From: Dipteris shenzhenensis
Taxonomy: Eukaryota
Strand: one strand, 5' to 3'
NCBI GenBank assembly: GCA_047967505.1
Contig: CM106538.1
Length of the DNA stretch: 64,000 nt
Shown here: one piece after another, positions 8,853 through 32,395 of the stretch
Position numbering within the stretch: position 1 is the first letter of the stretch
How the letters are laid out: every line of letters starts with the position of its first letter
Notes under the pieces: generated by a model
The model's database searches: none
What the model saw: the letters and a program-made list of their open reading frames with translations, nothing else
Told to the model about the DNA's origin: nothing
Position numbers and translations under genes: made by a program

Positions 8853-11024
8853 ACAAGACTCGCTCGACTTATCAAATTAATAAGACATTTTGTATAAGAC
8901 TCGCTCGACTTATCAAATTAATACACAAACATAAACCTACTAGTCAACTATTGGAGTTGGACATTAAAGATTGACTAGTGACATGGTTGGTGACCAAAGC
9001 TTGAAGTTGACTAGACACTTTGGGACAAGCAAGTTCTTTAGAAGGAAACTAGGTTTAAGCTTGGGTAATCATCCCTAATATATTGTAAAATTACTAATGA
9101 TAAATCATCCTTTAACTATTTGGCAATTAGTAAGGATCGATTCTACTAGGAAATATGTTGAAGGCATATGTCCCCTATTAGTCAATAGATTGATTAGACT
9201 AAGCATGCATGATAAGGCTATAGCTTGGAAATGCCTAGATAGTGGCTTAGTCCAAATCTTCAATATCCCTTAAGAAGACATGAAATAGTGGCTTAGACCT
9301 TAAGAAGACATGGAATAGTTTGCAAATGTCTAATTCTTCTAAGTTATGCATAGACTCTAGCATAACTGAAAAAAGAATATTACAAGATTGAGAATATTTG
9401 GATGGGTCTTCAAGAACTCGAATATTACGGTCTGTGCCTATAAACTGTTTCAGATTCTTATGCTATCACTATGGCATGCTTTAGATCTAGCACTTTGATC
9501 ATGTTTGTTGTCTAGTTCCATAATTCATCTACTTCTCTTATATGTATAAGAAGAAAGAAATACGCCATAGAGAAATTGAAAGTTTAACTAGAATACCTAA
9601 CATTCATTGCACATGGGACTCTAGTGGATCTATATTCATTCCACATTCATGCTAATATATGCAAGTGTTTTGATCAACTATAGACCTAAGTTCAAATAGA
9701 GCCTGTTAATGACTGAATCTCTCCTAATCATCCCTTAATGATCATCTCATGATCATAGATAAGAGACTTAAGAGAGAGAGAACTCCATAACCTTCAAGAG
9801 TCGACATTTGAAGCATCCCATTCCATGTTGTTTGCTACATGGCAGCTTGCCATGTGGCACACATACATCCCTTTTTGCACTGTAGGGAAACCTATGACTA
9901 ATGTTAACAACATTTATCTTGTCTTTTACAAATGACTAAGATGTTTTCCCAAAAAGACTTTGTAACAATAATCACGTGAACCACCTCATAACCAAAATAG
10001 TGCGGATGCTACATATCTCCTTTCCCTCGTTGAAACTATGTCACACATGGAATGTCAACCACATGCTCAAGGAATTATATGCTAGTTTCATTGTAAGCAA
10101 GGGTGGTCTCTTTCTTGCTAGTCCAACCATAGGCAACGGTGACGCTTATTACTTGAGCTCAACCAAAATTAACATTAGTTATCGTATGCAACCCTTCCCA
10201 TTGCATAGGGACATCCAAGGATTTAATTTTCAAAGTTTTTGAATCCTCTTCTAGGGATCTTGTGCCCTTTGTTGTTGCTACGTATGTGGATGATCTCATT
10301 CCAAAACTATTTTTACAACTAGAAGTCGAGTGACTCTTATACAAAATGTCTTGAACCAAGTGATGATCTATAGGAATGGCCACTAGTTGAGGTGGATTGC
10401 CCAACCAAAATAGATAATATTGAAAAGGCTTAATTATTTTCTCAAAGTTCTCGCTTTAAAAGGTCTGTAGTGTGAACCCGCTCTCTTTTTTAATGTGTAG
10501 TCCGAGAAATACTAGATGCGCCTTGCTTGTGTATTGTTCAAAGTAATGTATTAGGTATCCTTCTATCTCCTCCATATCTATTGCAAACCCAAGGCAGTAA
10601 AGCATTCAAAGAAGGTCTTATTAACCAAACCTCTCCACTATCTGTCCTTAGTATAGGGGCCATTAGTGGACAATGTGGTCCTTACACCACATGTGGAAAA
10701 CTTTCATATTGGATAAAAAGTGAAAAAAGGGAAACATATAAGGAGAAAATATTTGAGACATCTAAGTTTTAAAATGCAATGACTAGAGTGAAAAAATTCT
10801 AATCAAAATTAAGAATTATTAATAATATTGATTAATATTGAGCCACACATTTGGCCCATCTATCGGTAGGTGCATAGGATCTACCTCATCAAGGAGTACG
10901 TACAAATAGTTTTCATTACGTAAATAGATTATAAGTCATATTGAATAGAATATTATTTTCATTACCCAAATAGAATATTAATTTCCATGTGTTTTTTTTG
11001 TGCATGTGCCAGCCCAGCGCACAG

Positions 11025-11374
11025 GTTCTAGCACCACTATTTGTATGCAGATAGAGATGCTGAGAGCTTAGATGAGGGCACTGCAGGATGCTAGGGCACC
11101 CCCTGACTTGGTTGCGAGCCTGGATTCAGTTATTGAGGCTCTGAGTCGATTGGACACAGTTGAGGACGTTGTGGATAGCTTTCAGGCACAGGCCGAGGCG
11201 GAGATCACTGGTGGTGGCTTGGATTGGAGAGCCATTCGACAGTTGTTTGAGCGGGAGTCACATCACAGGGAGGCCTTGGACGACATGTTTTGGGATGGTC
11301 ACACCGAGGCGATGCGACCACGATCAGGGCTCCCCTTGCATATTTTATGGTGTAGGCACCCCATCATAGCAGCA
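11025..11374 (+). pseudogene. RING cargo gene of the outer copy, 5' part, interrupted by the nested insertion
   Basis: Near-identical to the reverse complement of 21838-21490. The frame ...HPIIAA resumes as HIYPRYL at 26450. Extra TAG at ~11068. Confidence 0.85.
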
Positions 11375-12643
11375 GGGTGGAAGCAAGCTAAGGGTGTCCA
11401 CTTTTTGTTCACTCCCCAATCCTAAGGAGGTGGAAAAACAAGCTTTTTAGCACACAAAAATGCAAATCTCATCTACTTCCCTATGGATCTAGTCTTTGAA
11501 GTCTTCTGACACAACATCACAGTTGCTATTGTGCACGCAATCGTATAGTCTGATCGAAAATTCGATGCACACACAAAAAATTTCTTTGTGTCACACGGCA
11601 TGGTTCCAGGGTGGTCACACGTTTGTCACGAACAAAGAGTGTCATATAAAATTCTAAATTTCTCACTCATTTTAGATTAAATGTTATTAAAACTTTGTAA
11701 GTGGTCTCTTTGCATTATGTAGAGCTTAACTTGATTTATTGGTAATTTTTTGAATGATTTATCTAATTATAAATAATTATTTATAATAAATAAAGTCATA
11801 AAATACATGCATTTTAGTAGCACACCACATTTTTTTAGTATTTTGAATAATTAAGCAAATCCAATTCGGTGGAAGGTTGGTAGGCACATAAGGGTGTGTG
11901 GTTGAATCATCAAATCCCAAATCCAACGGTTAGATTTAGGAAGATTGAAGTTTAATTTTTACTTTTACTCCTCAGAGGATCAACAAAGAATATTAAAAAT
12001 AAATCTAGTAATTCTCAAACATAACCAAACATTTCAAAAATGTCAATATTTTTAGTCCTCTGCATGATGAATAAGAGGAAAAAATTTTGGTTAAATTTGA
12101 GCAAGGGAAACGTACGATATGGCCTCCAAGAGTGAAATCTCTCTTTTGTGGGTGAAAAAGGGCCACCCAAGCCTAATACCAAGACAAGGTAGGCTTGGTA
12201 TTAGGCTTGGTGAGGTAGGCTAGGAGCATCACCGATCCTAGTGGCAAGCCTTTGGAGTCTGCATGCTGCCCATGTGGAAGGCTGAGTCATCAAAACCATG
12301 CCACGTTGTTAGACCACGTGGTGCCATCTCATCAAGCAGATGTGACATCACTCCTTGCCATGTCACCTTACATTGCCACACGTGCTGCCACATGTGCCAC
12401 CTCATCATTCCACATCATTTGCCATGTGATCACACAATGCCACCTTGGCATACCTCCTCTCCTGGCCACGTCACCAATCCCTCCACCTCAATTTGCCATG
12501 TCATCTACCACCTCATGAATGCCAACTCGTCATGCCCAGTACCACATCATGACCATGCAGGAAGAGACTATATCACCACATCATGACCATGCATGGTGCC
12601 ACATCAGCCAGATGCATACACATGACGATGTGCGATGCATACA

Positions 12644-12784
12644 ATACCTCGATCGAGGTACATATGATGGGTGAGGCATACATTACCTCGTTCGAGGTAT
12701 GTGACCGAGGAGACATACAGATACCTCGATCGAGGTTCATACATACATGCATGCGCAATGCACTAAATACCTCGATCGAGGTAT
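12644..12784. repeat. four ATACCTCGATCGAGGTA-type palindromes upstream of the transposase
   Basis: Copies at ~12644, 12684, 12721 and 12767; TATA-like CTATAAG at ~12919. Confidence 0.88.
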
Positions 12785-13013
12785 AAGCTCTGATCGCGGC
12801 TCTGGGCATAGCAGACCTCTCCACCAAAACTAAGCCAATTAGTATCAATCTTAGCACCTCTCCACCAATAATAATGAAGAGCAATCTAAGAGCAATCTAG
12901 TGGATGAGTTGAGGCTCTCTATAAGACACCACGTTTTGGTTCATTTCACCCATTCTTAGCCATTCTTGCCTCCTCATCACTTTGTCACACCTTCCATCCT
13001 ACTTTCATTGAGA

Positions 13014-15932
13014 ATGGGTTCTCAAAGCCGTAGAGCTAGTAGACGTGAAAGATGTAGGAACCCCCCCCAAATCTCATTGACGAGGAGTGCAAGCGGAAGG
13101 CTCGTGAGCGCAAGAGAGCCTCTAGAGCTCGAGCTCGCGCTGCCACCACTGATCCACCTCCAGCTCTACCTCTACATCCCACCTCCACCCCCACCCCCAC
13201 CTCCATTGTCCCCCCATGCTCATCCGCTCCCCTACCTCTAGCCTCCGCCCTTCCCCTAGCCACCTACATTTTGGCCTCCACGTCTACCTCTTCCCCCTCC
13301 ACCCTCCCCCCTCCCCCTCCCCCCACTCCGCTTGGCGCCTCCCTTCCCCCGTCCACCGTACCATCTCCCATTGATCCCGTTGCCCCACCTTGCAGCAGCA
13401 GTGTTGCTTCACGACGTGACTTGCCGAAGTCCACTATCCGTCGTCGTGCTAGCAAGATTGTGCAGTCTTTTTTTTGTGACCTCACGCCAGCTTCGCAGTC
13501 TTCTCTTCTTACGTCCCTGATTGATCACCCTGACTTGGTAGAGTGTAGGAGGCTTGCTGGTCTTGGTGCACGTAGAGATAGGGTTGTATCTAGCGAGGTC
13601 CTTAGCAGTGTTCGATGTTCCTATGCTTCTATTAAGCATAGGAACTCCAGTGATGCCTTGGCAGCACGTCGTGCTATTGTGGCTGCCATTAGTAGGCCTC
13701 ATATGATAGGCCATGTGCGTACCGCTTCACGTCTTCTTCAGATTGCACTGCGCACATTGCGAGTAGGCATCATTAGGAGGTAGAGTCTAGAGGATAGTGA
13801 GACTGATGCTCTTTGGGCTTCGAGTGGTCGTGCACCTCGCTGCGATCGATTGTTGGATGATTCCACTAGGTCCTTCATACAACAGTTTTGGGAGGAGCAT
13901 TGCAGAGCATCCCCGGTGTTCAAGAAGGCATTGCGGAAGAGGGTGTCACGCGGTGTGTACATTGAGCATGGTGCATGTTTTTTGGAGTGTACCCAGACTG
14001 AGTTGTACACTCAGTTTGTAGAGGCGCACCCGGAGTTCAAGATTGGGCAGAGGTCATTTGAGCGATGCAGGCCATGGTTTGTGCGATGCTCTCAGGAGCG
14101 TGACACATGCTGTTGTCGCTACCATGTGGATTTTGGATTGATGTATGACGTATTCCGTTCCCTTGATGGTCATAGGGGAGTGGTTCCTACTAGCCCTCGC
14201 GACTTCATTCATTCCATATTGTGTACTCGTACGAGATGGTGATGCTTTATTCCACTCCCTTGATTGTGTGGAAGGCACGTGTACTTTGTGTGGTGACTTT
14301 GCCAGAGTGCCACGAGTTGCACTAGATACTTGTGATGTGCAGATGGTTTGTTGGCAGCAGTATGAGTACTGTACCTTGACATTAGATGGTGGTGCACAGT
14401 CGAGGAGGTTGCAGCTTGTGGGGAAGGAGACACCACGTGTTGTATTCATTGACTGTTTTCGAGGGAAGCTGTACCGCTACATACGCCACTCGCACACTGC
14501 GAAATGGGAGGATCGTCAGTTTCGTGCATGTTTGAGGACATTTCCTATAGGGGTGGTTGTCTCAGTGGTGGACTTTGCGGAGAATTACACCTTTGCACCA
14601 CAGCATGAGATCCAATCGGAGTATTATTTCTCCGAACAGGTGACGTGTGATTGAGTGTTGATTTTTTCCCCGCCTCATTATATTGAATTATTTCAATAGT
14701 CATATTTTTTTTTCAATGCCATATTGCAGGTTGCTATATTTGTGCACATTAGCTATCGTCATGCACAGGCTCATGTGGATGGCATTGATAGCACCATGGA
14801 CTCACGCATCATTGTGCGAGAGTATCACTTCTACATTAGTGATGATCGATCGCATGATGCCCATTTTGTGCAGCATTGCTTCACTTTGCATGATAGTTTC
14901 TTGAGGGATCATGGTGTCACATGGCAGCGGTGCTGGATTTGGTCAGACGGTTGCGGCGGCGGTCAGTTCAAATCCGCTAGACAGTTTTATTGGTTCTGCA
15001 GATGGCACCATGAGACAGGCATTCCGATCACATGGAGCTACTTCGAGACAGGGCACGGTAAGGGAGAGCACGATGGTGCAGGTGCTTGCATGAAGCGTGC
15101 TTTGCGTCGATACCAGTTGCGTCACAGTGCCGATCGCTTCAAGGATGCACATGATGTGGTGTGGTGGTGCAGCCAGCACTTATCCACTAGTGCTACGTCC
15201 TCGTTTCAGTCACGTGACGATAGGGTGGTGAGCCGGTATTTTTGGTGCGTGGACATTGGGAGTCTTGATCGGTCGAGGCCTTTTGATTGTCGTTCTGTGC
15301 CTGGCACTCTTGATTTCCATTCCATCAGGAGTGTAGGTGAGTCTCACCCTGCGATCTTTTCTCGACGGTTTGCATGTTTTTGCTCTGCATGCATTGATGA
15401 TGATTGGGGAGGGTGCTCCATGATACCATGGGCCGATCCATGGGTACGGCGAGTGCTTTCTCCCTTCCAGCCTTGGGAGGAGATACATGATGATCAGGAT
15501 GCGGGATTCAGTTCCTCTAGAGATTATGACCAGCTTACAGATATTTTGCGTATTGGTGATATCTTCGCGGTTATTGCTTCGGAGGGCAATGAGGAGGGTG
15601 TGGATTATTACTTGTTGCGATGCTCTATGCTGAAGAGTGTGCTGAATGAGGATACAGTGGATGGGCATGGGATGCACTTCAATGCTCATAGCATGATCGT
15701 CGGTGGCCACTATTTTCAGCAGATACAGAGGCGTGGTCGCTATATTGAGTTCCAGGAGTACATGGCGGATCGGGAGGCATACATGTATTCTCATCTTGTT
15801 GTTGGGATCAAGATTACTTTGAGTCGTGTTCGCACTCGCAAGGCGACGTCCACTCCACGATGGCGCCTTGCAGTGGCGGATCACGAGAGCATACTTGCAA
15901 CTATTGGCATGAGAGCTGATCCTGAGGAGTAG
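13014..15932 (+). pseudogene. Sola2-type DDD transposase, two exons (intron 14640-14729), ~940 aa when repaired
   Basis: Motifs VDFAENY..QHEIQSEYY, WSDGCGG(G)QFKS and FETGHGKGEHDGAG; Cys clusters DTCCCRYH, CVEGTCTLCG and RRFACFCSAC. The GT-AG intron joins SEQ/VAIFVH. Lesions: frameshift ~13065, TAG ~13781, 4-bp insertion ~14226. Confidence 0.88.
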
Positions 15933-16264
15933 CACATTACATATCTTATTGTTTGGGATCATCAGTTGATCAGATTGATTTTTATTGGGTATCACTAGTT
16001 GATTACACTTTTTTGTATTCGATATGTATTGGCTCACTGTGTGACCATACCATTGTAATTTTCATGGACTCATATTTTGTATTTCACTATGATGGCTGTA
16101 TACACGTTCATACACATCATTGTATTAGATTCTATTTTTAACATGATGTCCGATGTCTTCTCAATGGGATTTGTTGTGTTTGTAATACAAAAAATTGTTT
16201 ATTAGTAGTAATGTTGTAATTTGTTTTGTGCATTAGGACATTTTAAAAACGTGACTAAGAAAAT

Positions 16265-18335
16265 AGCGCACGTACTAACGAAATACGCGTGTGGACTTGC
16301 TTATTGGGGATGAAACTTTGCACGACTCTTAGGCCACCCTAGCCAATAGTCCACGCGAGATTTGGTCTGAATTGATTTGGTGTGCGCCACGTGGAAGGTA
16401 CAATGCGTACATTTTTACAATCCCTACTAGCACTCGTGACTACGTATGAGCTATGGCGCATGTACTAACGAAATGCGCGTGTGGACTTATCTGTTGGGAA
16501 TGAAACTTCGCACAACTCTTAGGCCACCCTAGACATACATCCACGCAAGATTTGTTCTCCAACTTATTTGGTATGCGCCACGTGGAAGGTATAATGCGTA
16601 CATTTTTACAATCCCTACTAGCACGACTACGTGTGAGAAATGGTGCACGTACTAACCAAATATGCATGTGGACTTATCTGTTGGAGATTAAACTTTGCAC
16701 GGCTCTTAGGTTACCGTAGACGTACATCCACGCAAGATTTGGTGCCCAACTGATTTGGTATGCGCCACGTGGAAGGTACAATGCGTACATTTTTGCAATC
16801 CCTACTAGCACGACTACGTATGAGCTATGGCGCATGTAATGAGGAAATACGCGTGTGGACTTATCTGTTGGAAATGAAACTTCGCACGACTCTTAGGCTA
16901 CCGTAGGCGTACATCCACGCAAGATTTGGTGCCCAACTGATTTGGTATGCGCCACATGGAAGGACAGTTGCGTACATTTTTACAATCCCTACTAGCACTC
17001 GTGACTACGTATGAAAAATGGCGCACGTACTAATGAAATACACACGTGGACTTATCTGTTGGGGACGAAACTTCACACGCCTCTTAAGCTACCCTAGATG
17101 TACATCCACGCAAGATTTGGTCTCCAACTGATTTGGTATGCGCCACGTGGAAGGACAAATGCATACATTTTTACAATTTCTACTAGCACGACTAAACCCT
17201 AAACCCTAAACCCTGGACCCTAAATCCTAAACCCTGTTGGGCATGAAACTTCACACGCCTCTTAGGCTACCCTAGACGTACATCCACGCAAGATTTGGTC
17301 TCCAACTGATTTTGTTTGCGCCATGTAGAAGCAATCCCTACTAGCACGGCTAAACCCTAAACCCTAAACCCTAAACCCTGGACCCTAAATCCTAAACCCT
17401 GTTGGGGACGAAACTTCACATGCCTCTTAGGCTACCCTAGACGTACATCGACGCAAGATTTTGTCTCCAACTGATTTGGTTTGCGCCACGTAGAAGCAAT
17501 CCCTACTAGCACGGCTAAACCCTAAACCCTAAACCCTAAACCCTGGACCCTAAATCCTAAACCCTGTTGGGGACGAAAATTCACACGCCTCTTAGGCTAC
17601 CCTAGACGTACATCCACGCAAGATTTGGTCTCCAACTGATTTAGTTTGCGCCACGTAGAAGCAATCCCTACTAGCACGGCTAAACCCTAAACCCTAAACC
17701 CTAAACCCTGGACCCTAAATCCTAAACCCTGTTGGGGACAAAACTTCACACGCCTCTTAGGCTACCCTAGACGTACGTACATCCACGCAAGATTTGGTCT
17801 CCAACTGATTTTGTTTGCGCCATGTAGAAGCAATCCCTACTAGCACGGCTAAGCCCTAAACCCTAAACCCTAAACCCTGGACCCTAAATCCTAAACCCTG
17901 TTGGGGACGAAACTTCACACGCCTCTTAGGCTACCCTAGACGTACATTCACGCAAGATTTGGTCTCCAACTGATTTAGTTTGCGCCACGTAGAAGCAATC
18001 CCTACTAGCACGGCTAAACCCTAAACCCTAAACCCTGGACCCTAAATCCTAAACCCTGTTGGGGACGAAACTTGACACGCCTCTTAGGCTACCCTAGACG
18101 TACATCCACGCAAGATTTGGTCTCCAACTGATTTGGTTTGCGCCACGTAGAAGCAATCCCTACTAGCACGGCTAAACCCCAAACCCTAAACCCTAAACCC
18201 TGGACCCTAAATCCTAAACCCTGTTGGGGACGAAACTTCACACGCCTCTTAGCTACCCTAGACGTACATCGACGCAAGATTTGGTCTCCAACTGATTTGG
18301 TTTGCGCGACGTAGAAGCAATCCCTACTAGCATGA
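16265..18335. repeat. internal tandem array: ~187-191 bp units grading into ~158-169 bp units with (CCCTAAA)n
   Basis: The anchor CTAGCAC recurs at 16427, 16618, 16805, 16992, 17183, 17341, 17506, 17671, 17840, 18005 and 18163. Seven telomere-like blocks lie in 17192-18221. Confidence 0.93.
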
Positions 18336-19866
18336 CTACACGTTAGCGTACCACCAAAGTCAAAAGAAAATAGTAAAATTAAATTGTGGCCTAACATGTC
18401 ACACCTTCCTTGTACTCCCATACATGAGTGGAGTTTAAAAGGGAGAAGTGGGATTGTTAATATGTGTATATTTTTTTGGTGCATAGCCTGTGCAACAACC
18501 CTTTCTTTTTACATAAACCAAATACCAACACTTTTCCTTATACCAATCGCCAATCCTTTCTCTTGTACATAAACCACTAAATGCAAAAGAAAATAGTGAA
18601 ATAAAATGGTGGGCTAGCATGCTACACCTTCCTTGTATTCCCGTATACATGCATTAATTGCCAATTGTGTTGATTTCTCTTCTTTATGTTCATTATCTTT
18701 TATACATGCATAATAATTAGATTGGTGCATTGGCAAATGTCATATTAAGGAAATTGAAATAGTCCTTAGAAACTTGGAAGGCATATGCGATTGTGATTTG
18801 GAAGGCACATGTGATTGTGGTTCGAATATGACAAATAATTAGGTCTTGTTTTCTTTGATCACCAATTAGCACAAGTATTGTTAACAATAACAGACAAATT
18901 AAACACTGAGTCATAATAAATAACAGCAAAATCATGCAGAGGACAAGTCTAACTCCATTTTTGAAAAAAATCCCCTAAAAATTTATATTTTTTAAAAATT
19001 GTAGGGACAAAATATACGCTTCATGTCAATAATATTAAAAAACTAGAATTGTGAAAAAAGAATGCATAAAATATTACTTATATTTTATTGCAGAACCTAA
19101 AAATGTCTAGTATTACCATTTGCAAAAAGTATTCTCTCCTTTAATTTAAAAAACATGACAAATTGCAAAGGAGAAGAAACTGCTTCATTCAACTAAGAGA
19201 GTTGCTAGAGCTTTTTCTTTGAAATACCAATTGTTTTCTATGCAAGTGCCCATATCAAATTGAAAGTTGGTAAAATTGATGTTACTTTAATATCTAATTT
19301 CATTTGATGAAACAATTTTACATTGGGCTATGGCATTGTCTAAAAAAAGTAATTTTCTTTTTATACAAATTAGTTTATCAAATGGTTGAATTTCAACATA
19401 TTTTGATATTAAGATCGGAAGGCTAGATTTGGAAGCATGAATATGACAATAGTTGTCTTTTTGAAAAATTGATGAAAATTTGGATTTTGAAACACACTTT
19501 ATTGACAAACATGAATAGAATAAAATTTTTGTTTAAAAAATGAAAAACTTTTATCCGCAAAATAAAATTTTCATCCAAAATAAGATGAATTTTGATATGT
19601 TTAATGTTTAATGTTTGCAATTAATGTTTAATGTTTACAATTACTTCACATGGCATTCTTTTTTAAATACCTTATGTATTAAACAAACTATAAACTGAGA
19701 TAAACTGAGATAAACAAAGTGTGAAGAACATCATGAAAGTACGAAAATGCTCATACATCATAAAAGTGGGAACAATATCATGAAAGTACCAAAATGAATC
19801 TGTACATCATCATCATCATGCTGCAAAAGTGCATCCCTATACAAGAAACGTGTGAAGCCTAAACAA

Positions 19867-21838
19867 TCAATCTGAATCTGAATCTGATAACTCTACATAT
19901 GATCCTCTAGTGGAACGCTGACGTGGCTCCTGTATGACTCGCTGCCCAACCGTCCGCTGTGTGCCCTCAGGCAATGCCGGCTCAGATGGGCTAGCCTCAT
20001 CACCTGCATGAGATGGGCCAGCCTCATCCTGATGAGGAGGAGGGCATGCTGCACGCGCCACTGCTGCCATCTCTGCATCCCTCGCCTCCTCTATGTACGC
20101 GCGTCTCAGCTCCCATAGCCGTGCATCTGCGAATACTCGTGCCTCAAATCCAGCGCGAGTAATCGTCTCTACATGTGAAATACGCTGGTCTCGGCCCCGC
20201 CCTAGCTGCTGCTCCACCCACTGCTGCAATGATGTCTGCAGCTCTGCCTCTCGCTCAATCCGGCGTGCCTCCTCCGCTCGTGCCTCGTCACCTGGCATGA
20301 AGTCACCGTACGAAAAGCGGCATGGAACGCATGATGCAACCACTGATGTATCCGCACACTCCTGCATCAGCAATGCTCTCTGTGCCTCCTCCCTGTAGTG
20401 CTCTGTCAGGACTACACGGGCGAATGGATCAACAGCCTGACGATGACCAGGATATAGATCATCCATGCCCAGTCCTCTGTATGTCGCCACATCAATGTCG
20501 GCAAAGCATACCGGGCACATTGAACGTGCCACCATGTGGCGGGTCATGCAGTGGAGATGTGCGATGTGGCCGCACCCTAGACCAAACCACCCTACGGTGT
20601 CAAATTCCTCGTGGCAGAGGACACAAGTGGAGGTAGGAAGCCTCGCTACGACTGCTGCGTCTATCGGTGTCCTAGTCGGCACATCTACAGGAGGAGCAGG
20701 GTATAGGGCCACACTGGGGTCGATCCTATGGCGCGACGGATCATGACTGATATGCCTCAACTGCAAGATATAGTGCTCTGCGCGATGGTATGCTATGCGT
20801 GTCCGAATCCTCTGCTCCTCCAAATCTGTCTGCAAGAGTCGTACGCGAGACTCCATCTCCTGACGCAAGAGTCGTACGCGAGACTCCATCTCCTGACGCA
20901 ATAGATGTGCCTGCAATGCAAACATGTCGCGTACATGGTGAGAATTAACCAAAAAACTTCAGTTCAAAACACGCTACAAAAAAATAAACTAACATAATCA
21001 AAATAACTAACCTCGTCCCTAGACTCGGCCAACACAGCCTCCAACTCTGCAATCCGTCTGTCTCGAGCCTCCAACTCGTGCTGAGGCGCCGTAGATGTGG
21101 GAGGTGGTGTAGATGTGGGACGCTCCATCGATGATCGAGGTGGGGGAGGTGGAATCGCAATAGATCTCGATAGGGCCGAGACCATGTGCTGCAAGGATGA
21201 TGCCACTGAATGAACATCTCCCCTAATCTGTCCTCCCACCGCTCACAATGCCGGTGCAGGGATGGTGTGCAACTCTGGTCCCTCGCGTCGATGCCGAACA
21301 CCTACAATCTGCCGCTCCTGGCGCCCCATCCTACCACGTCCCGCTCCTGATCCTGGACGGGTACTGAGGTAGTCCACCCGATGACCAAGGACAAACTCAG
21401 CATAAAGCTGCATGGCAAACGACCTCGCTATCTGGCGGTTGTGAGGCAACCGACCACCATTCGCAGCAAGATATCTCGGATAAATGTGTGCTGCTATGAT
21501 GGGGTGCCTACACCGTAAAATATGCAAGGGGAGCCCTGATCGTGGTCGCTGGCCCTCGGTGTGACCATCCCAAAACATGTCGTCCAAGGCCTCCCTGTGA
21601 TGTGACTCCCGCTCAAACAACTGTCGAATCGCTCTCCAATCCAAGCCACCACCAGTGATCTCCGCCTCGGCCTGTGCCTGAAAGCTATCCACAACATCCT
21701 CAACTGTCTCCAATCGACTCAGAGCCTCAATAACTGAATCCAGGCTCGCAACCAAGTGAGGGGGTGCCCTAGCATCCTGCAGTGCCCTCATCTCAGCTCT
21801 CAGCATCTCTATCTGCATACGAATAGTGGTGCTAGAAC
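19867..21838 (-). pseudogene. transposon cargo gene encoding a coiled-coil plus RING-H2 protein (intron 20911-21011)
   Basis: CVLC-x13-CGHIAHLHC-x10-CPVC matches C3H2C3. The GT-AG intron joins ESRDE/AHLLRQ in frame. One premature TGA at ~21243, where the other copy reads CAA. The protein ends YVELSDSDSD; upstream exon(s) uncertain. Confidence 0.85.
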
Positions 21839-23999
21839 CTGTGCGCTGGCTGGCGCATGCACAAAAAAAACACATGGAAATTAATATTCTATTTGGGTAA
21901 TGAAAATAATATTCTATTCAATATGACTTATAATCTATTTACGCAATGAAAACTATTTGTACGTACTCCTTGATGAGGTAGATCCTATGCACCTACCGAC
22001 CGGTAGATGGGCCAAATGTGTGGCTCAATATTAATCAATATTATTAATAATTCTTAATTTTGATTAGAATTTTTTCACTCTAGTCGTTGCATTTTAAAAC
22101 TTAGATGTCTCAAGTATTTTCTCCTTATATGTTTCCCTTTTTTCACTTTTTATCCAATATGAAACTTTTCCACATGTGGTGTAAGAACCACATTGTCCAC
22201 TAATGGCCCCTATACTAAGGACAGATAGTGGAGAGGTTTGGTTAATAAGACCTTCTTTGAATGCTTTACTGCCTTGGGTTTGCAATAGATATGGAGGAGA
22301 TAGAAGGATACCTAATACATTACTTTGAACGATACACAAGCAAGGCGCATCTAGTATTTCTCGGACTACACATTAAAAATGAGAGCGGGTTCACACTACA
22401 GACCTTTTAAAGCGAGAACTTTGAGAAAATAATTAAGCCTTCTCAATATTATCTATTTTGGTTGGGCAATCCACCTCAACTACTGGCCATTCCTATAGAT
22501 CATCACTTGGTTCAAGACATTTTGTATAAGACTCACTCGACTTCTAGTTGTAAAAATAGTTTTGGAATGAGATCATCCACATACGTAGCAACAACAAAGG
22601 GCACAAGATCCCTAGAAGAGGATTCAAAAACTTTGAAAATTAAATCCTTGGATGTCCCTATGCAATGGGAAGGGTTGCATACGATAACTAATGTTAATTT
22701 TGGTTGAGCTCAAGTAATAAAGCGTCACCGTTGCCTATGGTTGGACTAGCAAGAAAGAGACCACCCTTGCTTACAATGAAACTAGCATATAATTCCTTGA
22801 GCATGTGGTTGACATTCCATGTGTGACATAGTTTCAACGAGGGAAAGGAGATATGTAGCATCCGCACTATTTTGGTTATGAGGTGGTTCACGTGATTATT
22901 GATACAAAGTCTTTTTGGGAAAACATCTTAGTCGTTTGTAAAAGACAAGATAAATGTTGTTAACATTAGTCATAGGTTTCCCTACGGTGCAAAAAGGGAT
23001 GTATGTGTGCCACATGGCGAGCTGCCATGTAGCAAACAACATGGAATGGGATGCTTCAAATGTCGACTCTTGAAGGTTATGGAGTTCTCTCTCTCTTAAG
23101 TCTCTTATCTATGATCATTAAGGGATGATTAGGAGAGATTCAGTCATTAACAGGCTCTATTTGAACTTAGGTCTATAGTTGATCAAAACACTTGCATATA
23201 TTAGCATGAATGTGGAATGAATATAGATCCACTAGAGTCCCATGTGCAATGAATGTTAGGTATTCTAGTTAAACTTTCAGTTTCTCTATGGCGTATTTCT
23301 TTCTTCTTATACATATAAGAGAAGTAGATGAATTATGGAACTAGACAACAAACATGATCAAAGTGCTAGATCTAAAGCATGCCATAGTGATAGCATAAGA
23401 ATCTCAAACAGTTTATAGGCACAGACTGTAATATTCGAGTTCTTGAAGACCCATCCAAATATTCTCAATCTTGTAATATTCTTTTTTCAGTTATGCTAGA
23501 GTCTATGCATAACTTAGAAGAATTAGACATTTGCAACTCCATGTCTTCTTAAGGTCTAAGCCACTATTTCATGTCTTCTTAAGGGATATTGAAGATTTGG
23601 ACTAAGCCACTATCTAGGCATTTCCAAGCTATAGCCTTATCATGCATGCTTAGTCTAATCAATCTATTGACTAATAGGGGACATATGCCTTCAACTTATT
23701 TCCTAGTAGAATCGATCCTTACTAATTGCCAAATAGTTAAAGGATGATTTATCATTAGTAATTTCCCAATATATTAGGGATGATTACCCAAGCTTAAACC
23801 TAGTTTCCTTCTAAAGAACTTGCTTGTCCCAAAGTGTCTAGTCAACTTCAAGCTTTGGTCACCAACCATGTCACTAGTCAATCTTTAATGTCCAACTCCA
23901 ATAGTTGACTAGTAGGTTTATGTTTGTGTATTAATTCGATAAGTCGAGCGAGTCTTATACAAAATGTCTTATTAATTTGATAAGTCGAGCGAGTCTTGT

Positions 24000-25540
24000 G
24001 CCTCATTAAACGTTTTTTAAATTTAAAATTTTCACATTTTAAATTTTAAATGTCGTAATTCAAAAAAAAAAATTAATTTACAAATGCATTTCAAATTTAT
24101 AAATACTTAAAAATTATTCCTATGAACGTTTTTTATTTAATAGAAAGAGCTCTATTTAACAAAAAAAAATCTCATTTCACATTTTAAATAAAAAATGTCG
24201 TAATTTACAAATTTTAAAAAAACATTAAAATGCATTATAAATTTTGAAATTTTTTATAATTTTCCTTATAAACTAAAATTTAATTAAATTCTACCAAAAA
24301 GAAAATGCTACATTAAAAAAATAGAAATATAGAACTCCTAATTCAAAAATTTTAAAAAAATTTACAAATGCATTTCAAAATTATAATATTTTATAATTAT
24401 TAATATGAACGTTCTTTTAAAATACAATTTCATATAAAAAAGCTCTATTTTGAAAATACAATTTCATTTTCACATTTTAAATAAAAAATGTCATAATTCA
24501 TAAATTTCAAAAAAACATTATATTGCATTTCAAATTTAGAAAATTTTTATTATTTCTCTTTTAACCTAAAATTTTTTATTATTTCTCTTTTAAATTCTAC
24601 CTCATAAAAAAAATAGAAATATTTAACATTTTCACATTTTTAATAAAAAAAGCCTCATTAAACGATTTTTAAATTTAAAAATTTCACATTTTAAATTATA
24701 AATGTCGTAATTTAAAAATTAAAAAATAAAATTTACAAATGCATTTGAAATTTATAAATATTTTATAATTATTAATATGAACTTTTTTTATTTACTAAAA
24801 AAGGCTCTATTTAAAAAAAATAATTAATTTTCACATTTTAAATAAAAAATCTCGTAATTTATAAATTTAAGAAAAACTAAATTTATAATGCATTTTATAA
24901 TTTTTCTTATAAACTAAAATTTTAAATTACGTTTTTTAAAATTAAAATTTTCACATTTTAAATTATAAATGTCGTAAAAAAAAAATTTTACAACTACATT
25001 TTAAATTTATAAATATTTTATAATTAATTGCAATCAACGTTTTTTTATTTACTAAAAAAAGCTCTATTTAAAAAAAAAATAATTAATTTTCACATTTTAA
25101 ATAAAAAATCTCGTAATTTATAAATTTAAGAAAAACTAAATTTATAATGCATTTTATAATTTTTCTTATAAACTAAAATTTTAAATTACGTTTTTTAAAA
25201 TTAAAATTTTCACATTTTAAATTATAAATGTCGTTATTTAAAAAATAAAAAAAAAAATTCAACTACATTTCAAATTTATAAATATTTTATAATTAATAAT
25301 ATCAACGTTTTTTTATTTACTAAAAAAAGCTCTATTTAAAAAAAAAATTTAATTTTCACATTTTAAATAAAAAATCCCGTAATTCATAAATTTGAGAAAA
25401 ACATTAAAATTTCAGAAAAACATTAAAATGCATTTTATAATTTTTCTTTTAAACTAAAATTAAATCAAATTCTACATAAAAGAAAATGCTACATAAAAGA
25501 AAATGCTACATAAAAGAAAATGCTACACAAAAGAAAATGC
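24000..25540. repeat. AT-rich degenerate repeat (inverted counterpart of 7560-8852)
   Basis: Reverse-complement similarity to 7560-8852 with unit gains and losses. Confidence 0.8.
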
Positions 25541-25660
25541 CAACCTGGACTCTCCCCCTCCTGCTCCGTCCATCTCCGTCGAAGTCCGTTCGTCGCTCTC
25601 CGTCGCTCGCGCTCTTCCGTCGAAGTCCGGCAAATCCGAAATCGGTGAATGAGGCAGAGC

Positions 25661-26348
25661 TCGATCGAGGTATGCGGAATGAGGGGGGTCGCTCTCCTTT
25701 TATAATAAAAATTAGGGTTTACCTACCTCGATCGAGGTATTCTTTCCATGCGCATACATCACGGTACATATACCTCGATCGAGGTATTGGCATGCCACGA
25801 TACCTCGATCGAGGTATTCTTGACATAACCATGCATCTCGTTCGCATGCCACAATACCTCGATCGAGGTATTCTTTCCATGCGCATACATCCCGGCACAT
25901 ATACCTCGATCGAGGTATGGCCATGCCACGATACCTCGATCGAGGTATTGTGACATGCCCATACATCTCGGTACATCCACGTCGATGGAGGTTTTGACAT
26001 GCCACGATACCTCGATCGTGGTGTGTTGGCGGAAACGGGATGCCAAGTCATGTGTCCACGATACCTCGATCGAGGTATGTCATCCGCCCTGTTGGCTGCC
26101 CTTTCGGATGGCACATACCTCGATCGAGGTATGCTGGACATGCCACGTGACCTCGATCGAGGTTGAGCTGGATGGCCACAATACCTCGACGAGGTAGATG
26201 TGGCATGTGTAGCTGGCCTGCCAACAAACCTCGATCGAGGTACATGCTCGGTTCGGCAAAAAAGCTACGTACCTCGATCGAGGTATGGGCTAGGCTCGGT
26301 TGTGCTCGTGTGTGGTTTTCATTGGACCTTATACCTCGATCGAGGTAT
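25661..26348. repeat. subterminal palindrome array of the inner copy
   Basis: About 15 ATACCTCGATCGAGGTAT-type copies, mirroring 6751-7440. Confidence 0.92.
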
Positions 26349-26449
26349 AGGAGACCGAAGCAAAACCTTTGTATTTTCACTCGAGCGGGTGTCACACTCA
26401 CCCGAAAGTGGTCCGGAAGTGGACACCCTTAGCTTGCTACCTCCCAGCA

Positions 26450-28038
26450 CACATTTATCCGAGATATCTTGCTGCGAATGGTGGTCGATTGCCTCACAAC
26501 CGCCAGATAGCCAGGTCGTTTGCCATGCAGCTTTATGCTGAGTTTGTCCTTGGTCATCGGGTGGACTACCTCAGTACCCGTCCAGGATCAGGAGCGGGAC
26601 GTGGTAGGATGGGGCGTCAGGAGCGTCAGATTGTAGGTGTTCGGCGTCGACACGAGGGACCAGAGTTGCACACCATCCCTGCACCGGCATTGCAAGCGGT
26701 GGGAGGACAGATTAGGGGGGATGTTCATTCAGTGGCATCATCCTTACAGCACATGGTCTCTGCCCTATCGAGATCTATTGCGATTCCACCTCCCCCACCT
26801 CGATCATCGATGGAGCATCCCACATCTACACCACCTCCCACATCTACGGCACCTCAACACGAGTTGGAGGCTCGAGACAGACGGATTGCAGAGTTGGAGG
26901 CTGTGTTGGCCGAGTCTAGGGACGAGGTTAGTTATTTTGATTATGTTAGTTTATTTTTTTGTAGCATGTTTTGAACTGAAGTTTTTTGGTTAATTCTCAC
27001 CATGTACGCGACATGTTTGCATTGCAGGCACATCTATTGCGTCAGGAGATGGAGTCTCGCGTACGACTGTTGCAGACAGATTTGGAGGAGCAGAGGATTC
27101 GGACACGCATAGCATACCATCGCGCAGAGCACTATATTTTGCAGTTGAGGCATATTAGTCGTGATCCGTCGCGCCATAGGATCGACCCCAGTGTGGCCCT
27201 ATACCCTGCTCCTCCCGTAGATGTGCCGACTAGGACACCCATAGACGCAGCAGTCGTAGCGAGGCTTCCTACTGCCACTTGTGTCCTCTGCCACGAGGAC
27301 TTTGACACCGTAGGGTGGTTTGGACTAGGGTGCGGCCACATCGTACATCTCCACTGCATGACCCGCCACATGGTGGCACGTTCAGTGTGCCCTGTATGCT
27401 TTGCCGACATTGATGTGGCGACATACAGAGGACTGGGCATGGATGATCTATATCCTGGTCATCATCAGGCTGTTGATCCATTCGCCCGTGTAGTCTTGAC
27501 AGAGCACTACAGGGAGGAGGCACAGAGAGCATTGCTGATGCAGGAGGGTGCGGATACATCGGTGGTTGCATCATGCATTCCACGACGCTTTTCGTACGGT
27601 GATTTCATGCCAGGTGCCGAGGCACGAGCGGAGGAGGCACGCCGGATTGAGCGAGAGGCAGAGCTACGGACATCATTGCAGCAGTGAGTGGAGCAGCAGC
27701 TAGGGCGGGGCCGAGACCAGCGTCTTTCACATGTAGAGACGATTACTTGCGCTGGATTTGAGGCACGAGTATTCGCAGATGCATGGCTATGGGAGCTAAG
27801 ACGCGCGTACATAGAGGAGGCGAGGGAGGCAGAGATGGCAGCAGTGGCGCATGCAGCATGCCCTCCTCTTCATCAGGATGAGGCTGGCCCATCTCATGCA
27901 GGTGATGAGGCTAGCCCATCTGAGTCGGCATTGCCTGAGGGCACACAGCGGACGGTTGGGCAGCGAGTCATACAGGAGCCACGTCAGCGTTCCACTAGAG
28001 GATCATATGTAGAGTTATCAGATTCAGATTCAGATTGA
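26450..28038 (+). pseudogene. RING cargo gene of the outer copy, 3' part (intron 26927-27027)
   Basis: CVLCHEDF...CGHIVHLHC...CPVC; premature TGA at 27685-27687 (TGG in the other copy). Confidence 0.86.
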
Positions 28039-29794
28039 TTGTTTAGGCTTCACACGTTTCTTGTATAGGGATGCACTTTTGCAGCATGATGATGATGATG
28101 TACAGATTCATTTTGGTACTTTCATGATATTGTTCCCACTTTTATGATGTATGAGCATTTTCGTACTTTCATGATGTTCTTCACACTTTGTTTATCTCAG
28201 TTTATAGTTTGTTTAATACATAAGGTATTTAAAAAAGAATGCCATGTGAAGTAATTGTAAACATTAAACATTAATTGCAAACATTAAACATTAAACATAT
28301 CAAAATTCATCTTTTTTTGGATGAAAATTTTATTTTGCTGATAAAAGTTTTTCATTTTTTAAACAAAAATTTTATTCTATTCATGTTTGTCAATAAAGTG
28401 TGTTTCAAAATCCAAATTTTCATCAAATTTTCAAAAAGACAACTATTATCATATTCATGCTTCCAAATCTAGCCTTCCGATCTTAATATCAAAATATGTT
28501 GAAATTCAACCATTTGATAAACCAATTTGTATAAAAAGAAAATTACTTTTTTTAGACAATGCCATAGCCCAATGTAACATTGTTTCATCAAATGAAATTA
28601 GATATTAAAGTAACATCAATTTTACCAACTTTCAATTTATGCTATTTACAAAAAGTATTCTAGAAATGTATATTGGTACAAAACTTATCCATGACTCCGA
28701 GGGCAATGTTGTTACCTATGTGTAAATCAATTGATAAAAAATTCTTTCAACACCAATGAACTTGAGGGAATGTGTGATCTAGAGATACTTAAACAACATG
28801 ACAAAAGGAAAAAATTCGAGAAATCACCAATGTGTGGACATGCTTAGTTTGTAGGGTGTAGAAATTCTTTTATATGGATTTGATATGGGCACTTGCATAG
28901 AAAACGATTGGTATTTCAAAGAAAAAGCTCTAGCAACTCTCTTAGTTGAATGAAGCAGTTTCTTCTCCTTTGCAATTTGTCATGTTTTTTAAATTAAAGG
29001 AGAGAATACTTTTTGCAAATGATAATACTAGACATTTTTAGGTTCTGCAATAAAATATAAGTAATATTTTATGCATTCTTTTTTCACAATTCTAGTTTTT
29101 TAATATTATTGACATGAAGCGTATATTTTGTCCCTACAATTTTTAAAAAATATAAATTTTTTGGGGATTTTTTTCAAAAATGGATTAGACTTGTCCTTTG
29201 CATGATTTTGCTGTTATTTATTATGACTCAGTGTTTAATTTGTCTCTTATTGTTAACAATACTTGTGCTAATTGGTGATCAAAGAAAACAAGACCTAATT
29301 ATTTATCATATTCGAACCACAATCACATGTGCCTTCCAAATCACAATCGTATATGCCTTCCAAGTTTCTAAGGACTATTTCAATTTCCTTAATATGACAT
29401 TTGCCAATGCACCAATCTAATTATTATGCATGTATAAAAGATAATGAACATAAAGAAGAGAAATCAACACAATTGGCAATTAATGCATGTATACGAGAAT
29501 ACAAGGAAGGTGTGGCATGCTAGCACACCATTTTATTTCACTATTTTCTTTTGCATTTAGTGGTTTATGTACAAGAGAAAGGATTGGCGGTTGGTATAAG
29601 GAAAAGTGTTGGTATTTGGTTTATGTAAAAAGAAAGGGTTGTTGTGGCTATGCACCAAAAAAATATACACATATTAACAATCCCACTTCTCCCTTTTAAA
29701 CTCTACTCATGTATGGGAGTACAAGGAAGGTGTGACATGTTAGGCCACAATTAATTTTACTATTTTCTTTTGACTTTGGTGGTACGCTAACGTG

Positions 29795-32060
29795 TAGTCG
29801 TGCTAGTAGGGATTGCTTCTACGTGGCGCAAACCAAATCAGTTGGAGACCAAATCTTGCGTGGATGTACGTCTAGGATAGCCTAAGAAGCATGTGAAGTT
29901 TCGTCCCCAACAGGGTTTAGGATTTAGGGTCCAGGGTTTAGGGTTTAGGGTTTAGGGTTTAGCCGTGCTAGTAGGGATTGCTTCTACGTGGCGCAAACCA
30001 AATCAGTTGGAGACCAAATCTTGTGTGGATGTACATCTAGGGTAGCCTAAGAGGTGTGTGAAGTTTCGTCCCCAACAGGGTTTAGGATTTAGGGTCCAGG
30101 GTTTAGGGTTTAGGGTTTAGGGTTTAGCCGTGCTAGTAGGGATTGCTTCTACGTGGCGCAAACCAAATCAGTTGGAGACCAAATCTTGCGTGGATGTACG
30201 TCTAGGGTAGCCTAAGAGGCATGTGAAGTTTCGTCTCCAACAGGGTTTAGGATTTAGGATCCAGGGTTTAGGGTTTAGGGTTTAGGGTTTAGCCGTGCTA
30301 GTAGGGATTGCTTCTACGTGGCGCAAACCAAATCAGTTGGAGACCAAATCTTGCGTGGATGTACGTCAAGGGTAGCCTAAGAGGCGTGTGAAGTTTTGTC
30401 CCCAACAGGGTTTAGGATTTAGGGTCCAAGGTTTAGGGTTTAGGGTTTAGGGTTTAGCCGTGCTAGTAGGGATTGCTTCTACGTGGCGCAAACCAAATCA
30501 ATTGGAGACCAAATCTTGCATGGATGTACGTCTAGGGTAGCCTAAGAGGCGTGTGAAGTTTCGTCCCCAACAAGGTTTAGGATTTAGGGTCCAGGGTTTA
30601 GGGTTTAGGGTTTAGGGTTTAGCCATGCTAGTAGGGGTTGCTTCTACGTGGCGCAAACAAAATCAGTTGGAGACCAAATCTTGCGTGGATGTACGTCTAG
30701 GGTAGCCTAAGAGGTGTGTGAAGTTTCGTCCCCAACAGGGTTTAGGATTTAGGGTCCAGGGTTTAGGGTTTAGGGTTTAGTCGTGCTAGTAGAAATTGTA
30801 AAAATGTATGCATTTGTCCTTCCACGTGGCGCATACCAAATCAGTTGGAGACCAAATCTTGCGTGGATGTATGTCTAGGGTAGCCTAAGAGGCGTGTGAA
30901 GTTTCGTGCCCAACAGGGTTTAGGATTTAGGGTCCAAGGTTTAGGGTTTAGGGTTTAGTCGTGCTAGTAGAAATTGTAAAAATGTATGCATTTGTCCTTC
31001 CACGTGGCGCATACCAAATCAGTTGGAGACCAAATCTTGCGTGGATGTATGTCTAGGGTAGCCTAAGAGGCGTGTGAAGTTTTGTGCCCAACAGGGTTTA
31101 GGATTTAGGGTCCAGGGTTTAGGGTTTAGGGTTTAGTCGTGCTAGTAGAAATTGTAAAAATGTATGCATTTGTCCTTCCACGTGGCGCATACCAAATCAG
31201 TTGGAGACCAAATCTTGCGTGGATGTACATCTAGGGTAGCCTAAGAGGCGTGTGAAGTTTCGTCCCCAACAGATAAGTCCACGTGCATATTTCATTAGTA
31301 CGTGCGCCATTTTTCATACGTAGTCACGAGTGCTAGTAGGGATTGTAAAAATGTGCGCAACTGTCCTTCCATGTGGCGCATACCAAATCAGTTGGGCACC
31401 AAATCTTGCGTGGATGTACGTCTACGGTAGCCTAAGAGTCATGCGAAGTTTCATTTCCAACAGATAAGTCCACACGCGTATTTCATTAGTACATGCGTCA
31501 TAGCTCATACGTAGTCGTGCTAGTAGGGATTGTAAAAATGTACGCATTGTACCTTCCACGTGGCGCATAACAAATCAGTTGGGCACCAAATCTTGCGTGG
31601 ATGTACGTCTACGGTAACCTAAGAGCCGTGCAAAGTTTAATCTCCAACAGATAAGTCCACATGCATATTTGGTTAGTACGTGCGCCATTTCTCACACGTA
31701 GTCGTGCTAGTAGGGATTGTAAAAATGTACGCATTATACCTTCCAGTGGCGCATACCAAATAAGTTGGAGACCAAATCTTGCGTGGATGTATGTCCAGGG
31801 TGGCCTAAGAGTCGTGCGAAGTTTCATTCCCAACAGATAAGTCCACACGCGCATTTCGTTAGTACATGCGCCATAGCTCATACGTAGTCACAAGTGCTAG
31901 TAGGGATTGTAAAAATGTACGCATTGTACCTTCCACGTGGCGCACACCAAATCAATTCAGACCAAACCTTGCATGGATGTATGTCTAGGGTGGCCTAAGA
32001 GTCGTGCGAAGTTTCATCCCCAACAAGCAAGTCCACACGCGTATTTCGTTAGTACGTGCG
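29795..32060. repeat. internal tandem array with (TTTAGGG)n blocks, outer copy
   Basis: Eight GGGTTTAGGATTTAGGGTCCAGGGTTTAGGGTTTAGGG-type blocks at ~29912-31137, followed by the longer non-telomeric units. Confidence 0.93.
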
Positions 32061-32395
32061 CGAATTTTCTTAGTCACGTTTTTAAAATGTCCTAATGCAC
32101 AAAACAAATTACAACATTACTACTAATAAACAATTTTTTGTATTACAAACACAACAAATCCCATTGAGAAGACATCGGACATCATGTTAGAAATAGAATC
32201 TAATACAATGATGTGTATGAACGTGTATACAGCCATCATAGTGAAATACAAAATATGAGTCCATGAAAATTACAATGGTACGGTCACACAGTGAGCCTAT
32301 ACATATCGAATACAAAAAAGTGTAATCAACTAGTGATACCCAATAAAAATCAATCTGATCAACTGATGATCCCAAAAAATATGATATGTAATGTG

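Follow-up and report, generated by a model that had tools for sequence, protein, structure and literature searches.

We analyzed a 64,000-nt stretch of DNA from Dipteris shenzhenensis (assembly GCA_047967505.1, contig CM106538.1), referred to below as the window, in which two copies of a ~15-kb transposon lie one inside the other and a gene for a protein with a RING-H2 domain is found within the terminal inverted repeats (TIRs) of the element. The window has a eukaryotic look, with AT-rich DNA and GC-rich exons lying among satellites. We find it quite probable that the RING gene is the second, accessory gene of a Sola-like cut-and-paste transposon, and that it belongs to a conserved RING-H2 family that was maintained and later decayed. 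Copy 1 of the gene lies within the inner transposon copy (11375-26445), and is thus inside the TIRs as an initial annotation made from the sequence alone had implied; the insertion point of this inner copy is exon 1 of the RING gene of the outer copy, which is referred to as copy 2. The transposon copies, with their target-site duplications (TSDs), and the two copies of the gene are as follows.

11375-26445 (15,071 bp), plus strand: inner transposon copy, delimited by self-BLAST and comparison of ends
11375-11403 and 26417-26445: TIRs of the inner copy, flanked by the TSD AGCA at 11371-11374 and 26446-26449
6654-11374 and 26450-36965, minus strand: outer, inverted transposon copy, split by the inner copy, delimited by self-comparison
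6650-6653 and 36966-36969: TSD CAAG of the outer copy, whose host site is a 182-bp satellite
21012-21818, minus strand: RING gene copy 1, exon 1, 269 codons, encoding the N-domain and a helical Pro-rich linker
20911-21011, minus strand: predicted intron of copy 1, GTTAGT..TTGCAG, 101 nt, phase 0, AT-rich
19867-20910, minus strand: RING gene copy 1, exon 2, 347 codons and the stop
11045-11374, plus strand: RING gene copy 2, 5' portion of exon 1 up to the point where the inner element inserted, with a TAG at 11069-11071
26450-28038, plus strand: RING gene copy 2, continuation, with exon 1 completed at 26450-26926, the intron at 26927-27027 and exon 2 at 27028-28038

Copy 1 is read from the minus strand in two exons, from an ATG at 21818 to a TGA at 19867-19869, and has a conceptual product of 616 aa (605 aa without an in-frame 33-bp duplication at 20869-20901 that is found only in copy 1 and is missing from copy 2 and from the X2 contig of a public DNA run). 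The start at 21838 given in the initial annotation is arbitrary; plausible first ATG codons lie at 21818 and at about 21875, the latter coordinate being approximate because it was read off the translation. The open frame that contains the RING (19870-20958, minus strand, 363 aa) has to be joined to that of exon 1, and it is for this reason that an intron is predicted at 21011-20911. With its GT..AG sites intact in both copies and a GC content of 32%, against ~56% in the exons, it agrees with the claim that the gene contains an intron. Three RNA runs (X15-X17), compared at 90% likeness, contributed no reads, a result that does not count as a test of expression. The sequence features reported for the protein are likewise in place: the conserved N-terminal string GRLPHNRQIARSFAMQLYAEFVLGHRVDY at 21369-21455, the full C3H2C3 RING at 20506-20625 (C-x2-C-x13-C-x-H-x2-H-x2-C-x10-C-x2-C, eight ligands with canonical spacing) and the C-terminal YVELSDSDSD at 19870-19899. 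Exon 2 encodes, in order, a long helix, an LYP motif, the RING-H2 domain, a YRxxGMDDLYPG block, a second long helix and the tail.

Both copies of the gene are damaged. Copy 1 is broken by an in-frame TGA at codon 192 (21243-21245), where copy 2 has CAA, and since one copy reads TGA and the other CAA, the pair suggests an ancestral CGA that was hit by CpG deamination on either strand. An extra intron that would remove this TGA is ruled out, as copy 2 reads the entire stretch in one frame. In copy 2, the TAG at 11069-11071 arose by a G-to-T transversion, and a G-to-A change at 27687 turned the codon that corresponds to 20218-20220 into a TGA. The proposal that the two transposon copies carry the same gene is therefore correct in that both once had it, but copy 2 is now split by the insertion and bears a TAG and a TGA, and copy 1 bears a TGA of its own.

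The RING-H2 protein and its relatives

The protein family was collected by running a full HMMER search against 1.84 billion representatives, which returned, at a level well above chance, 41 proteins at E ≤ 0.001, 11 at E ≤ 1e-10 and three at E ≤ 1e-30, with the best match (2.5e-45) extending over the whole of exon 2. P0052, a protein of 388 aa, aligns with query residues 17-363 at 39% identity, and relatives at 30-39% identity retain all of the conserved blocks including the tail. These blocks comprise the pattern of a family-specific N-domain, GGLxW ... VLGxRVD[YF], then RIA[YE]xRAEH[YF], LYP, the RING, YRxxG[IM]DDLxPG and TRxxFxARV[FY]ADxR[IL]WE, and finally the tail block QRT[IV]xxRV[IV]QxPRxRxxxxxY.E[LVI], which is first basic, then aromatic and lastly acidic as it runs into D/E/S residues. 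None of the named families searched has an equivalent of the LYP, YRxxGMDDLYPG and TRxxFxARVFAD blocks, the tail or the N-domain. A word-index protein search with the RING open reading frame confirmed none of 7890 candidates, and a word-index search with a 12-row alignment recovered only P0059 and P0053 among 8000 candidates. When metagenomes were scanned with the RING alignment, 78 sequences matched the pattern, and a scan of viral contigs found 32 matches, but none of either was confirmed. A close single-copy host donor had been put forward as an observation that would speak against a dedicated transposon gene; no named host homologue or donor was found in the two word-index searches and the full HMMER search.

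The eight RING-H2 ligands and their C3H2C3 spacing are kept in all eight intact family RINGs, and in P0053 Tyr replaces ligands. A hydrophobic residue precedes the second Cys in 8/8 and Pro follows the seventh ligand in 5/8; the last Cys is followed by Phe in the window RING and by Arg in four of the seven others (P0054, P0055, P0056 and P0059). These same four relatives pass the cut-off of the Pfam family zf-RING_2 (PF13639), with 35.6, 31.9, 33.0 and 28.3 bits, respectively, and P0052 (26.2 bits), P0060 (26.4) and the frame from metagenome contig L055 discussed below (24.0) miss it. Searched against the PDB, the family profile matched the RING-H2 domain of Arkadia best (E 9e-8, over 49 residues of the RING only), followed by HRD1 (4e-7) and RNF165 (5e-7). 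The 54 distinct sequences matched at E ≤ 0.1 are, as far as they are named, almost all RING or RING-type domains of E3 ubiquitin ligases, and the RING of equine herpesvirus-1 is among the weak matches (1chc, E 0.013).

An AlphaFold2 model of the exon-2 protein has a mean predicted local distance difference test score (pLDDT) of 66, with ~77-86 in the RING and less than 50 in the tail, which is predicted to be disordered. The modeled RING superposes on those of RNF126, RNF165, RNF38 and RNF12 with root mean square deviations of 1.0-1.8 Å over 46-52 residues, the best being RNF126, RNF165 and RNF12 (1.0-1.1 Å over 47 residues; Foldseek E 0.02-0.06). Foldseek gave no match at E ≤ 0.001, a wide structural search with the exon-2 model gave generic long-helix matches only (Z at most 6.8), and an atlas look-up of exon 2 returned nothing but generic RING clusters, with values of at most 0.87. 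The helical character ascribed to the protein agrees with the long helices predicted in the model, but the coiled coil named alongside it is not established, a crude heptad scan having given a weak signal. Fold prediction for the N-domain was unusable, with a mean pLDDT of 42.3.

The likeness to RING-H2 E3 ligases such as Arkadia/RNF111, RNF165, RNF38, HRD1 and the EL5/ATL type extends to the C3H2C3 pattern, its spacing and the fold. It is, however, confined to ~50 residues, and the window protein has no transmembrane or PA domain. In one relative, P0054 (437 aa), the place of the N-domain is taken by a MED15-type KIX_2 domain (86 bits), ahead of the same module of helix, RING and post-RING blocks. 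Because P0054 has KIX_2 at this position, the comparison suggests that the N-terminal domain, a putative targeting domain, is exchangeable.

Linkage to the transposase, selection and decay

The RING gene shares its element with a transposase gene, which lies 3.9 kb from it in convergent orientation and is damaged in both copies.

13058-15932, plus strand: transposase gene of the inner copy, in several frames, frameshifted, convergent with the RING gene
32632-35373, minus strand: transposase gene of the outer copy, in frames of 561 aa and 254 aa with a gap between them (possibly an intron), the C-terminal part being cut by a stop

The transposase of the inner copy contains the motifs VVDFAENY, WSDGCGG(G)QFKS and GHGKGEHDGAGA, and DFAENY, WSDGC..QFK and GHGKGEHDGAGA are invariant in the transposase alignment. 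A search with the transposase frame found 51 relatives at E ≤ 0.001 among 1439 candidates, those with names being hypothetical proteins of Taxus chinensis, Cryptomeria japonica and Adiantum nelumboides, and no Pfam family at E ≤ 0.1 or PDB relative at E ≤ 1. The element is best fitted by a Sola-like cut-and-paste transposon, an assignment based on descriptions of TSD and size. It was made because only Sola, among the superfamilies compared, pairs a variable 4-bp TSD with a size of ~15 kb, the TSD lengths of the other superfamilies being general background. In the window the TSDs are CAAG/CAAG and AGCA/AGCA and the TIRs are 29 bp long. Sola elements are described, in the cited passages, as having 4-bp TSDs, DDD transposases and sizes of 2-9 kb, with some above 15 kb, and as being present in the moss Physcomitrella (PMC10741241), and their RNase-H-like domains as lacking similarity to Pfam families (PMC5751038). 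The window element is thus like Sola in its variable 4-bp TSDs, short TIRs, size of ~15 kb, Pfam-less transposase and non-flowering-plant context, and the D-bearing motifs DFAENY, WSDGC and GEHDGAG are compatible with the DDD transposase of Sola. It is unlike Sola in its second gene, which encodes a RING protein; the only second gene reported in the cited passages is Fanzor1, in Sola2 elements (PMC3627910).

An association between this transposase and a RING gene is also found outside the window. Scanning metagenomes with the transposase alignment yielded 216 confirmed relatives; from these, 80 loci (472,482 nt) were retained and searched for the RING gene using tblastn with 14 queries, the family hidden Markov model and the RING-H2 pattern. 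One of the 80, metagenome contig L055, has it. The L055 transposase is 38% identical to that of the window, and a 420-aa frame begins 170 nt after it on the same strand and runs off the contig. The N-domain of this frame is collinear with ours (E 2e-4 and 32% identity over 72 aa; ~30% across all of the N-region that aligns) and is followed by a helical middle and by a RING with the DID..YR extension of the family (49% over 51 aa, E 2e-16). In a FastTree tree of the transposase core, built from 73 of 81 sequences after eight loci with less than 60% coverage were dropped, the window and L055 define a 35-tip clade with a support of 0.989. The RING family therefore lies within TIRs or beside a transposase in both of the genomic contexts available for it, the former in both window copies and the latter in L055. 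TIR-like ends were not found in the 80 loci at up to six mismatches. One further match, in L080, was rejected: its weak RING-like similarity (E 4e-4) falls in a short, AT-rich frame that has none of the family blocks and is 5.3 kb away from the transposase on a 92-kb contig.

Comparison of the two gene copies yields 25 synonymous and 29 nonsynonymous differences, a ratio of nonsynonymous to synonymous rates (dN/dS) of 0.37 (Fisher p 5e-4) and so not near 1, the value that had been named as pointing away from a maintained gene. Because the exons are CpG-rich, we split the substitutions by class and tested each class against its own neutral expectation.

CpG transitions: 14 of 18 nonsynonymous, expected fraction 0.73, neutral
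Non-CpG transitions: 5 of 17 nonsynonymous, expected fraction 0.65, p 0.003
Transversions: 10 of 19 nonsynonymous, expected fraction 0.80, p 0.007

The CpG-transition class includes the changes behind the TGA at 21243-21245 in copy 1 and the TGA of copy 2. Since the non-CpG classes are biased toward synonymous changes and the CpG transitions are neutral, the pattern reads as two phases, an older one of purifying selection while the lineage would have been active and a later one of methylation-driven decay of silenced copies. The X2 contig of the public run (2865 nt, word depth 341) spans 19623-22128 at ~96% identity; among the 40 of its 105 differences from the window that were listed, 39 fall in 19879-20631, where 23 are synonymous, about 16 are not and none creates a stop. 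It also has a GCT insertion behind 20204. The conserved blocks and tail, the linkage in L055 and the excess of synonymous non-CpG changes together favor the dedicated accessory gene of the initial annotation over a random capture.

Several observations weigh against this reading. Both window copies are non-functional. The abundant X2 contig has a 2-nt (CT) insertion behind 21023, 11 nt before the predicted donor, that breaks the frame under our exon model, so the X2 form may be frameshifted itself or the splice donor may lie elsewhere. Between the two copies, the RING exons have diverged by 2.2-3.3%, the flanks and intron by 1.0-1.5% and the transposase region by 1.7%. Transversions number 19 in 1812 nt of RING coding sequence versus 7 in 2617 nt of the transposase region, in which 38 of 45 changes are transitions. 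The excess divergence of the RING exons may come from GC- and CpG-driven mutation or from a deeper, mosaic or recombinant ancestry of the RING segment. An accessory gene might be expected in most autonomous relatives, and ours is present at 1 of 80 transposase loci. The absence from the other 79, by tblastn, hidden Markov model and pattern, is weakly informative because most contigs are short (at least 1.5 kb of downstream sequence is available in 28 of the 80 loci, at least 4 kb in 13 and at least 6 kb in eight). Even so, none of the eight other loci of the window and L055 clade with 1.5-4.4 kb downstream carries the gene, and no long frame follows the transposase in L012 and L010; this goes part of the way to the situation, a gene missing from most family members, that the initial annotation had regarded as contrary to an accessory role. 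The gene order differs as well, being convergent at 3.9 kb in the window and tandem at 170 nt in L055, and because orientation and spacing differ the two linkages could represent two acquisitions. Given this differing arrangement and the absence from other loci, the RING gene is lineage-restricted, which points to frequent losses or to transfer from one element to another. As for the protein itself, the window RING scores 25.1 bits with zf-RING_2, below the 27.3-bit cut-off; the position of the Trp that contacts the E2 ubiquitin-conjugating enzyme in some RINGs is, on our reading of the alignment, non-hydrophobic in most members; and the N-domain has no recognizable fold or family by Pfam, by atlas look-up (nothing above 0.77) or by fold prediction.

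Possible roles of the RING protein

Judged by its RING domain, we lean toward the protein being an E3 ligase that recruits E2~ubiquitin. The RING would recruit the charged E2, the long helices would mediate oligomerization, and the N-domain and tail would choose the partner or substrate. As to the purpose of such an activity, a host-directed one, in which the ligase would modify or remove a host factor that limits the element (in silencing, chromatin or repair), is the likeliest in our view, though tentative and somewhat short of an even chance. Control of the element's own transposase comes second and is rather unlikely. It is quite unlikely that this Sola-type lineage in non-flowering plants carries a ubiquitin ligase as counter-defense against a silencing or chromatin factor. 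In that version the N-domain would recognize the host factor, the RING would ubiquitinate it, and the tail, with its invariant Tyr-x-Glu-Leu-acidic pattern, would bring the complex either to Atg8, for selective autophagy, or to chromatin marked with SUMO. Whatever the purpose was, the window copies later decayed by CpG deamination, nonsense mutation and self-insertion.

On the tail, our results depart from the initial annotation. It had been likened to a SUMO-interacting motif (SIM), and the protein had been proposed as a possible SUMO-targeted ubiquitin ligase (STUbL) that counters silencing or regulates the transposase. On this reading the protein, like RNF4, Arkadia or herpesvirus ICP0, would bind SUMO through its tail and degrade SUMOylated silencing factors or transposase. 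In keeping with this, the tail lies at the extreme C-terminus in all six members that reach there and runs into D/E/S residues with CK2-like serines, the C-terminal SIM of Daxx, IIVLSDSD, resembles the window tail, and Arkadia, whose RING is the best PDB sequence match of the family, is a SUMO-targeted ligase. Plant Mutator-like elements (MULEs), moreover, carry a SUMO-pathway domain, Ulp1 in Kaonashi, according to the cited part of PMC13317346. Yet an aliphatic SIM core ([VIL][VIL]x[VIL] or [VIL]x[VIL][VIL]) is present in none of the six family tails. Their invariant residue is instead Tyr (6/6), with Y-[VY]-E-[LVI] and an acidic/Ser run in five and YMID in P0086. The Arkadia match is limited to the 49 residues of the RING. 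STUbLs usually carry several SIMs and the tail is the single candidate here: the family has no other conserved acidic-flanked SIM core, and the window protein has only VRLL, in a helix and in the 33-bp duplicate. The SIM patterns and the CK2 consensus used here are general background, and non-canonical SIMs exist. Because no tail fits the strict core in these terms, we lowered our estimate of the STUbL reading and now consider it decidedly unlikely. An Atg8-type core, [W/F/Y]xx[L/I/V] with an acidic or phosphorylatable flank, is matched by five of the six tails; the pattern is short and common, and as a lead only, it would fit the tail at least as well as a SIM does. We infer that the tail is a short linear docking motif, either Atg8-type or a phospho-regulated SUMO type, and its predicted disorder is as expected for such a motif.

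Two further explanations concern the place of the gene in the element. The protein might be a transposition cofactor that binds the transposase or the element ends, its RING serving to self-regulate the amount of transposase, as in RAG1, or purely as an interaction module. The RING gene is a separate second gene inside the TIRs, two-gene plant DNA transposons with second proteins are familiar from CACTA, MuDR and PIF, and L055 is a further case of linkage with the transposase. RAG1 is reported, in the cited part of PMC8374863, to promote efficient recombination through its ubiquitin-ligase activity. Many related elements, however, apparently lack a RING gene, so the RING protein is not an essential cofactor of this transposase family, and no DNA-binding domain was recognized in it by Pfam or the atlas look-up; we do not think a cofactor role likely. 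The gene might alternatively have been captured (transduplicated) from the host and do nothing for the element, being retained by chance in this lineage and now decaying. Plant DNA transposons do often capture host sequences, as described in the cited part of PMC13317346, the gene is patchy among relatives, KIX_2 in place of the N-domain in P0054 shows modular shuffling, and both window copies are dead. Against chance retention stand the complete architecture, kept with its own intron, and its association with a 38%-identical transposase in L055, together with the synonymous excess in the non-CpG changes and, among the differences listed, relative to the X2 contig. With no named host homologue in the searches described above, capture of this kind appears highly unlikely. 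The accessory gene of a Sola-like transposon, maintained and then decayed, is the explanation that we prefer.

Such an accessory gene would have parallels among plant transposons. VANC is a transposon-encoded anti-silencing factor, and Kaonashi, with its Ulp1 domain, is found in VANDAL MULEs (both in the cited part of PMC13317346). Like the RING gene, these genes and the second open reading frames of MuDR, CACTA and PIF elements are separately oriented second genes inside TIRs, and like it they are selected in some lineages and missing from others. They differ from it in that none has any sequence relation to the window gene and none encodes a RING protein. The words "RING" and "ubiquitin" are absent from the 2026 review of gene capture by plant transposons (PMC13317346). 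In full-text literature searches, no Sola-type element or other DNA transposon of plants came up with an accessory gene for a RING protein, although supplements or further papers may report one, and a C3HC4 RING has been described inside one Phytophthora MULE transposase. The closest precedents for a RING ligase encoded by the mobile or parasitic element itself are RAG1/Transib-type proteins and viral RING ligases such as ICP0, which acts in viral counter-defense. The RAG1 RING, however, is of the C3HC4 type and part of a transposase-derived protein, whereas that of the window is a RING-H2 encoded by a separate gene.

Two-gene DNA transposons and RING domains inside transposase-derived proteins are thus already known, and what appears to be new is a separate, conserved RING-H2 gene carried by a Sola-type element. 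Since the window copies are dead, the value of the finding lies in the family and not in this locus. If the protein is an active E3 ligase, the family offers a way to study how protein turnover in the host is manipulated by a cut-and-paste element, and if the counter-defense version is true, it would be a transposon analog of viral suppressors such as ICP0 or polerovirus P0. The conserved tail provides a directly testable candidate docking motif, and the CpG-aware split of substitutions makes visible what appears to be a two-phase history of selection followed by methylation-driven decay.

Repeats within and around the transposon

The 29-bp TIR has the sequence GGGTGGAAGCAAGCTAAGGGTGTCCACTT, and its core occurs exactly four times in the window, once per transposon end. 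At the outer insertion site an empty site is available for comparison, all six satellite monomers matched by the search having a single CAAG there. The 12-nt palindrome CCTCGATCGAGG has 35 matches in the window, against 0.01 expected, and all are subterminal in the two copies; these repeats are probably binding sites of the transposase. Their distribution is asymmetric, with 13-14 copies at the RING-proximal end and four at the transposase-proximal end. The arrays concerned, with the tandem arrays between the two genes and the satellite, are as follows.

25659-26345 (inner copy, 14 repeats) and 6754-7440 (outer copy, 13 repeats): RING-proximal subterminal array of CCTCGATCGAGG
12647-12781 (inner copy, four repeats) and 35552-35682 (outer copy, four repeats): transposase-proximal subterminal array of CCTCGATCGAGG
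16260-18380 (inner copy) and 29792-32061 (outer copy): 165-190-bp tandem arrays inside the element, separating the transposase gene from the RING gene
5614-6653 and 36966-40400: 182-bp satellite array, target of the outer element

Strings like TCGATCGAGG or CTCGACCGAGGG were seen at the start of the metagenome loci L031 and L065. Elsewhere in the window, a second inverted repeat pair at 55723-57829 and 61893-64000 has 2.1-kb arms that are 96% alike and ~4 kb apart, and is probably either a distinct element whose TIRs are long or a further nested pair. In the regions 40001-42000 and 50001-54000, GC skew is very strong (0.45-0.59) and short tandem repeats (families D5, D9 and D13) are numerous.

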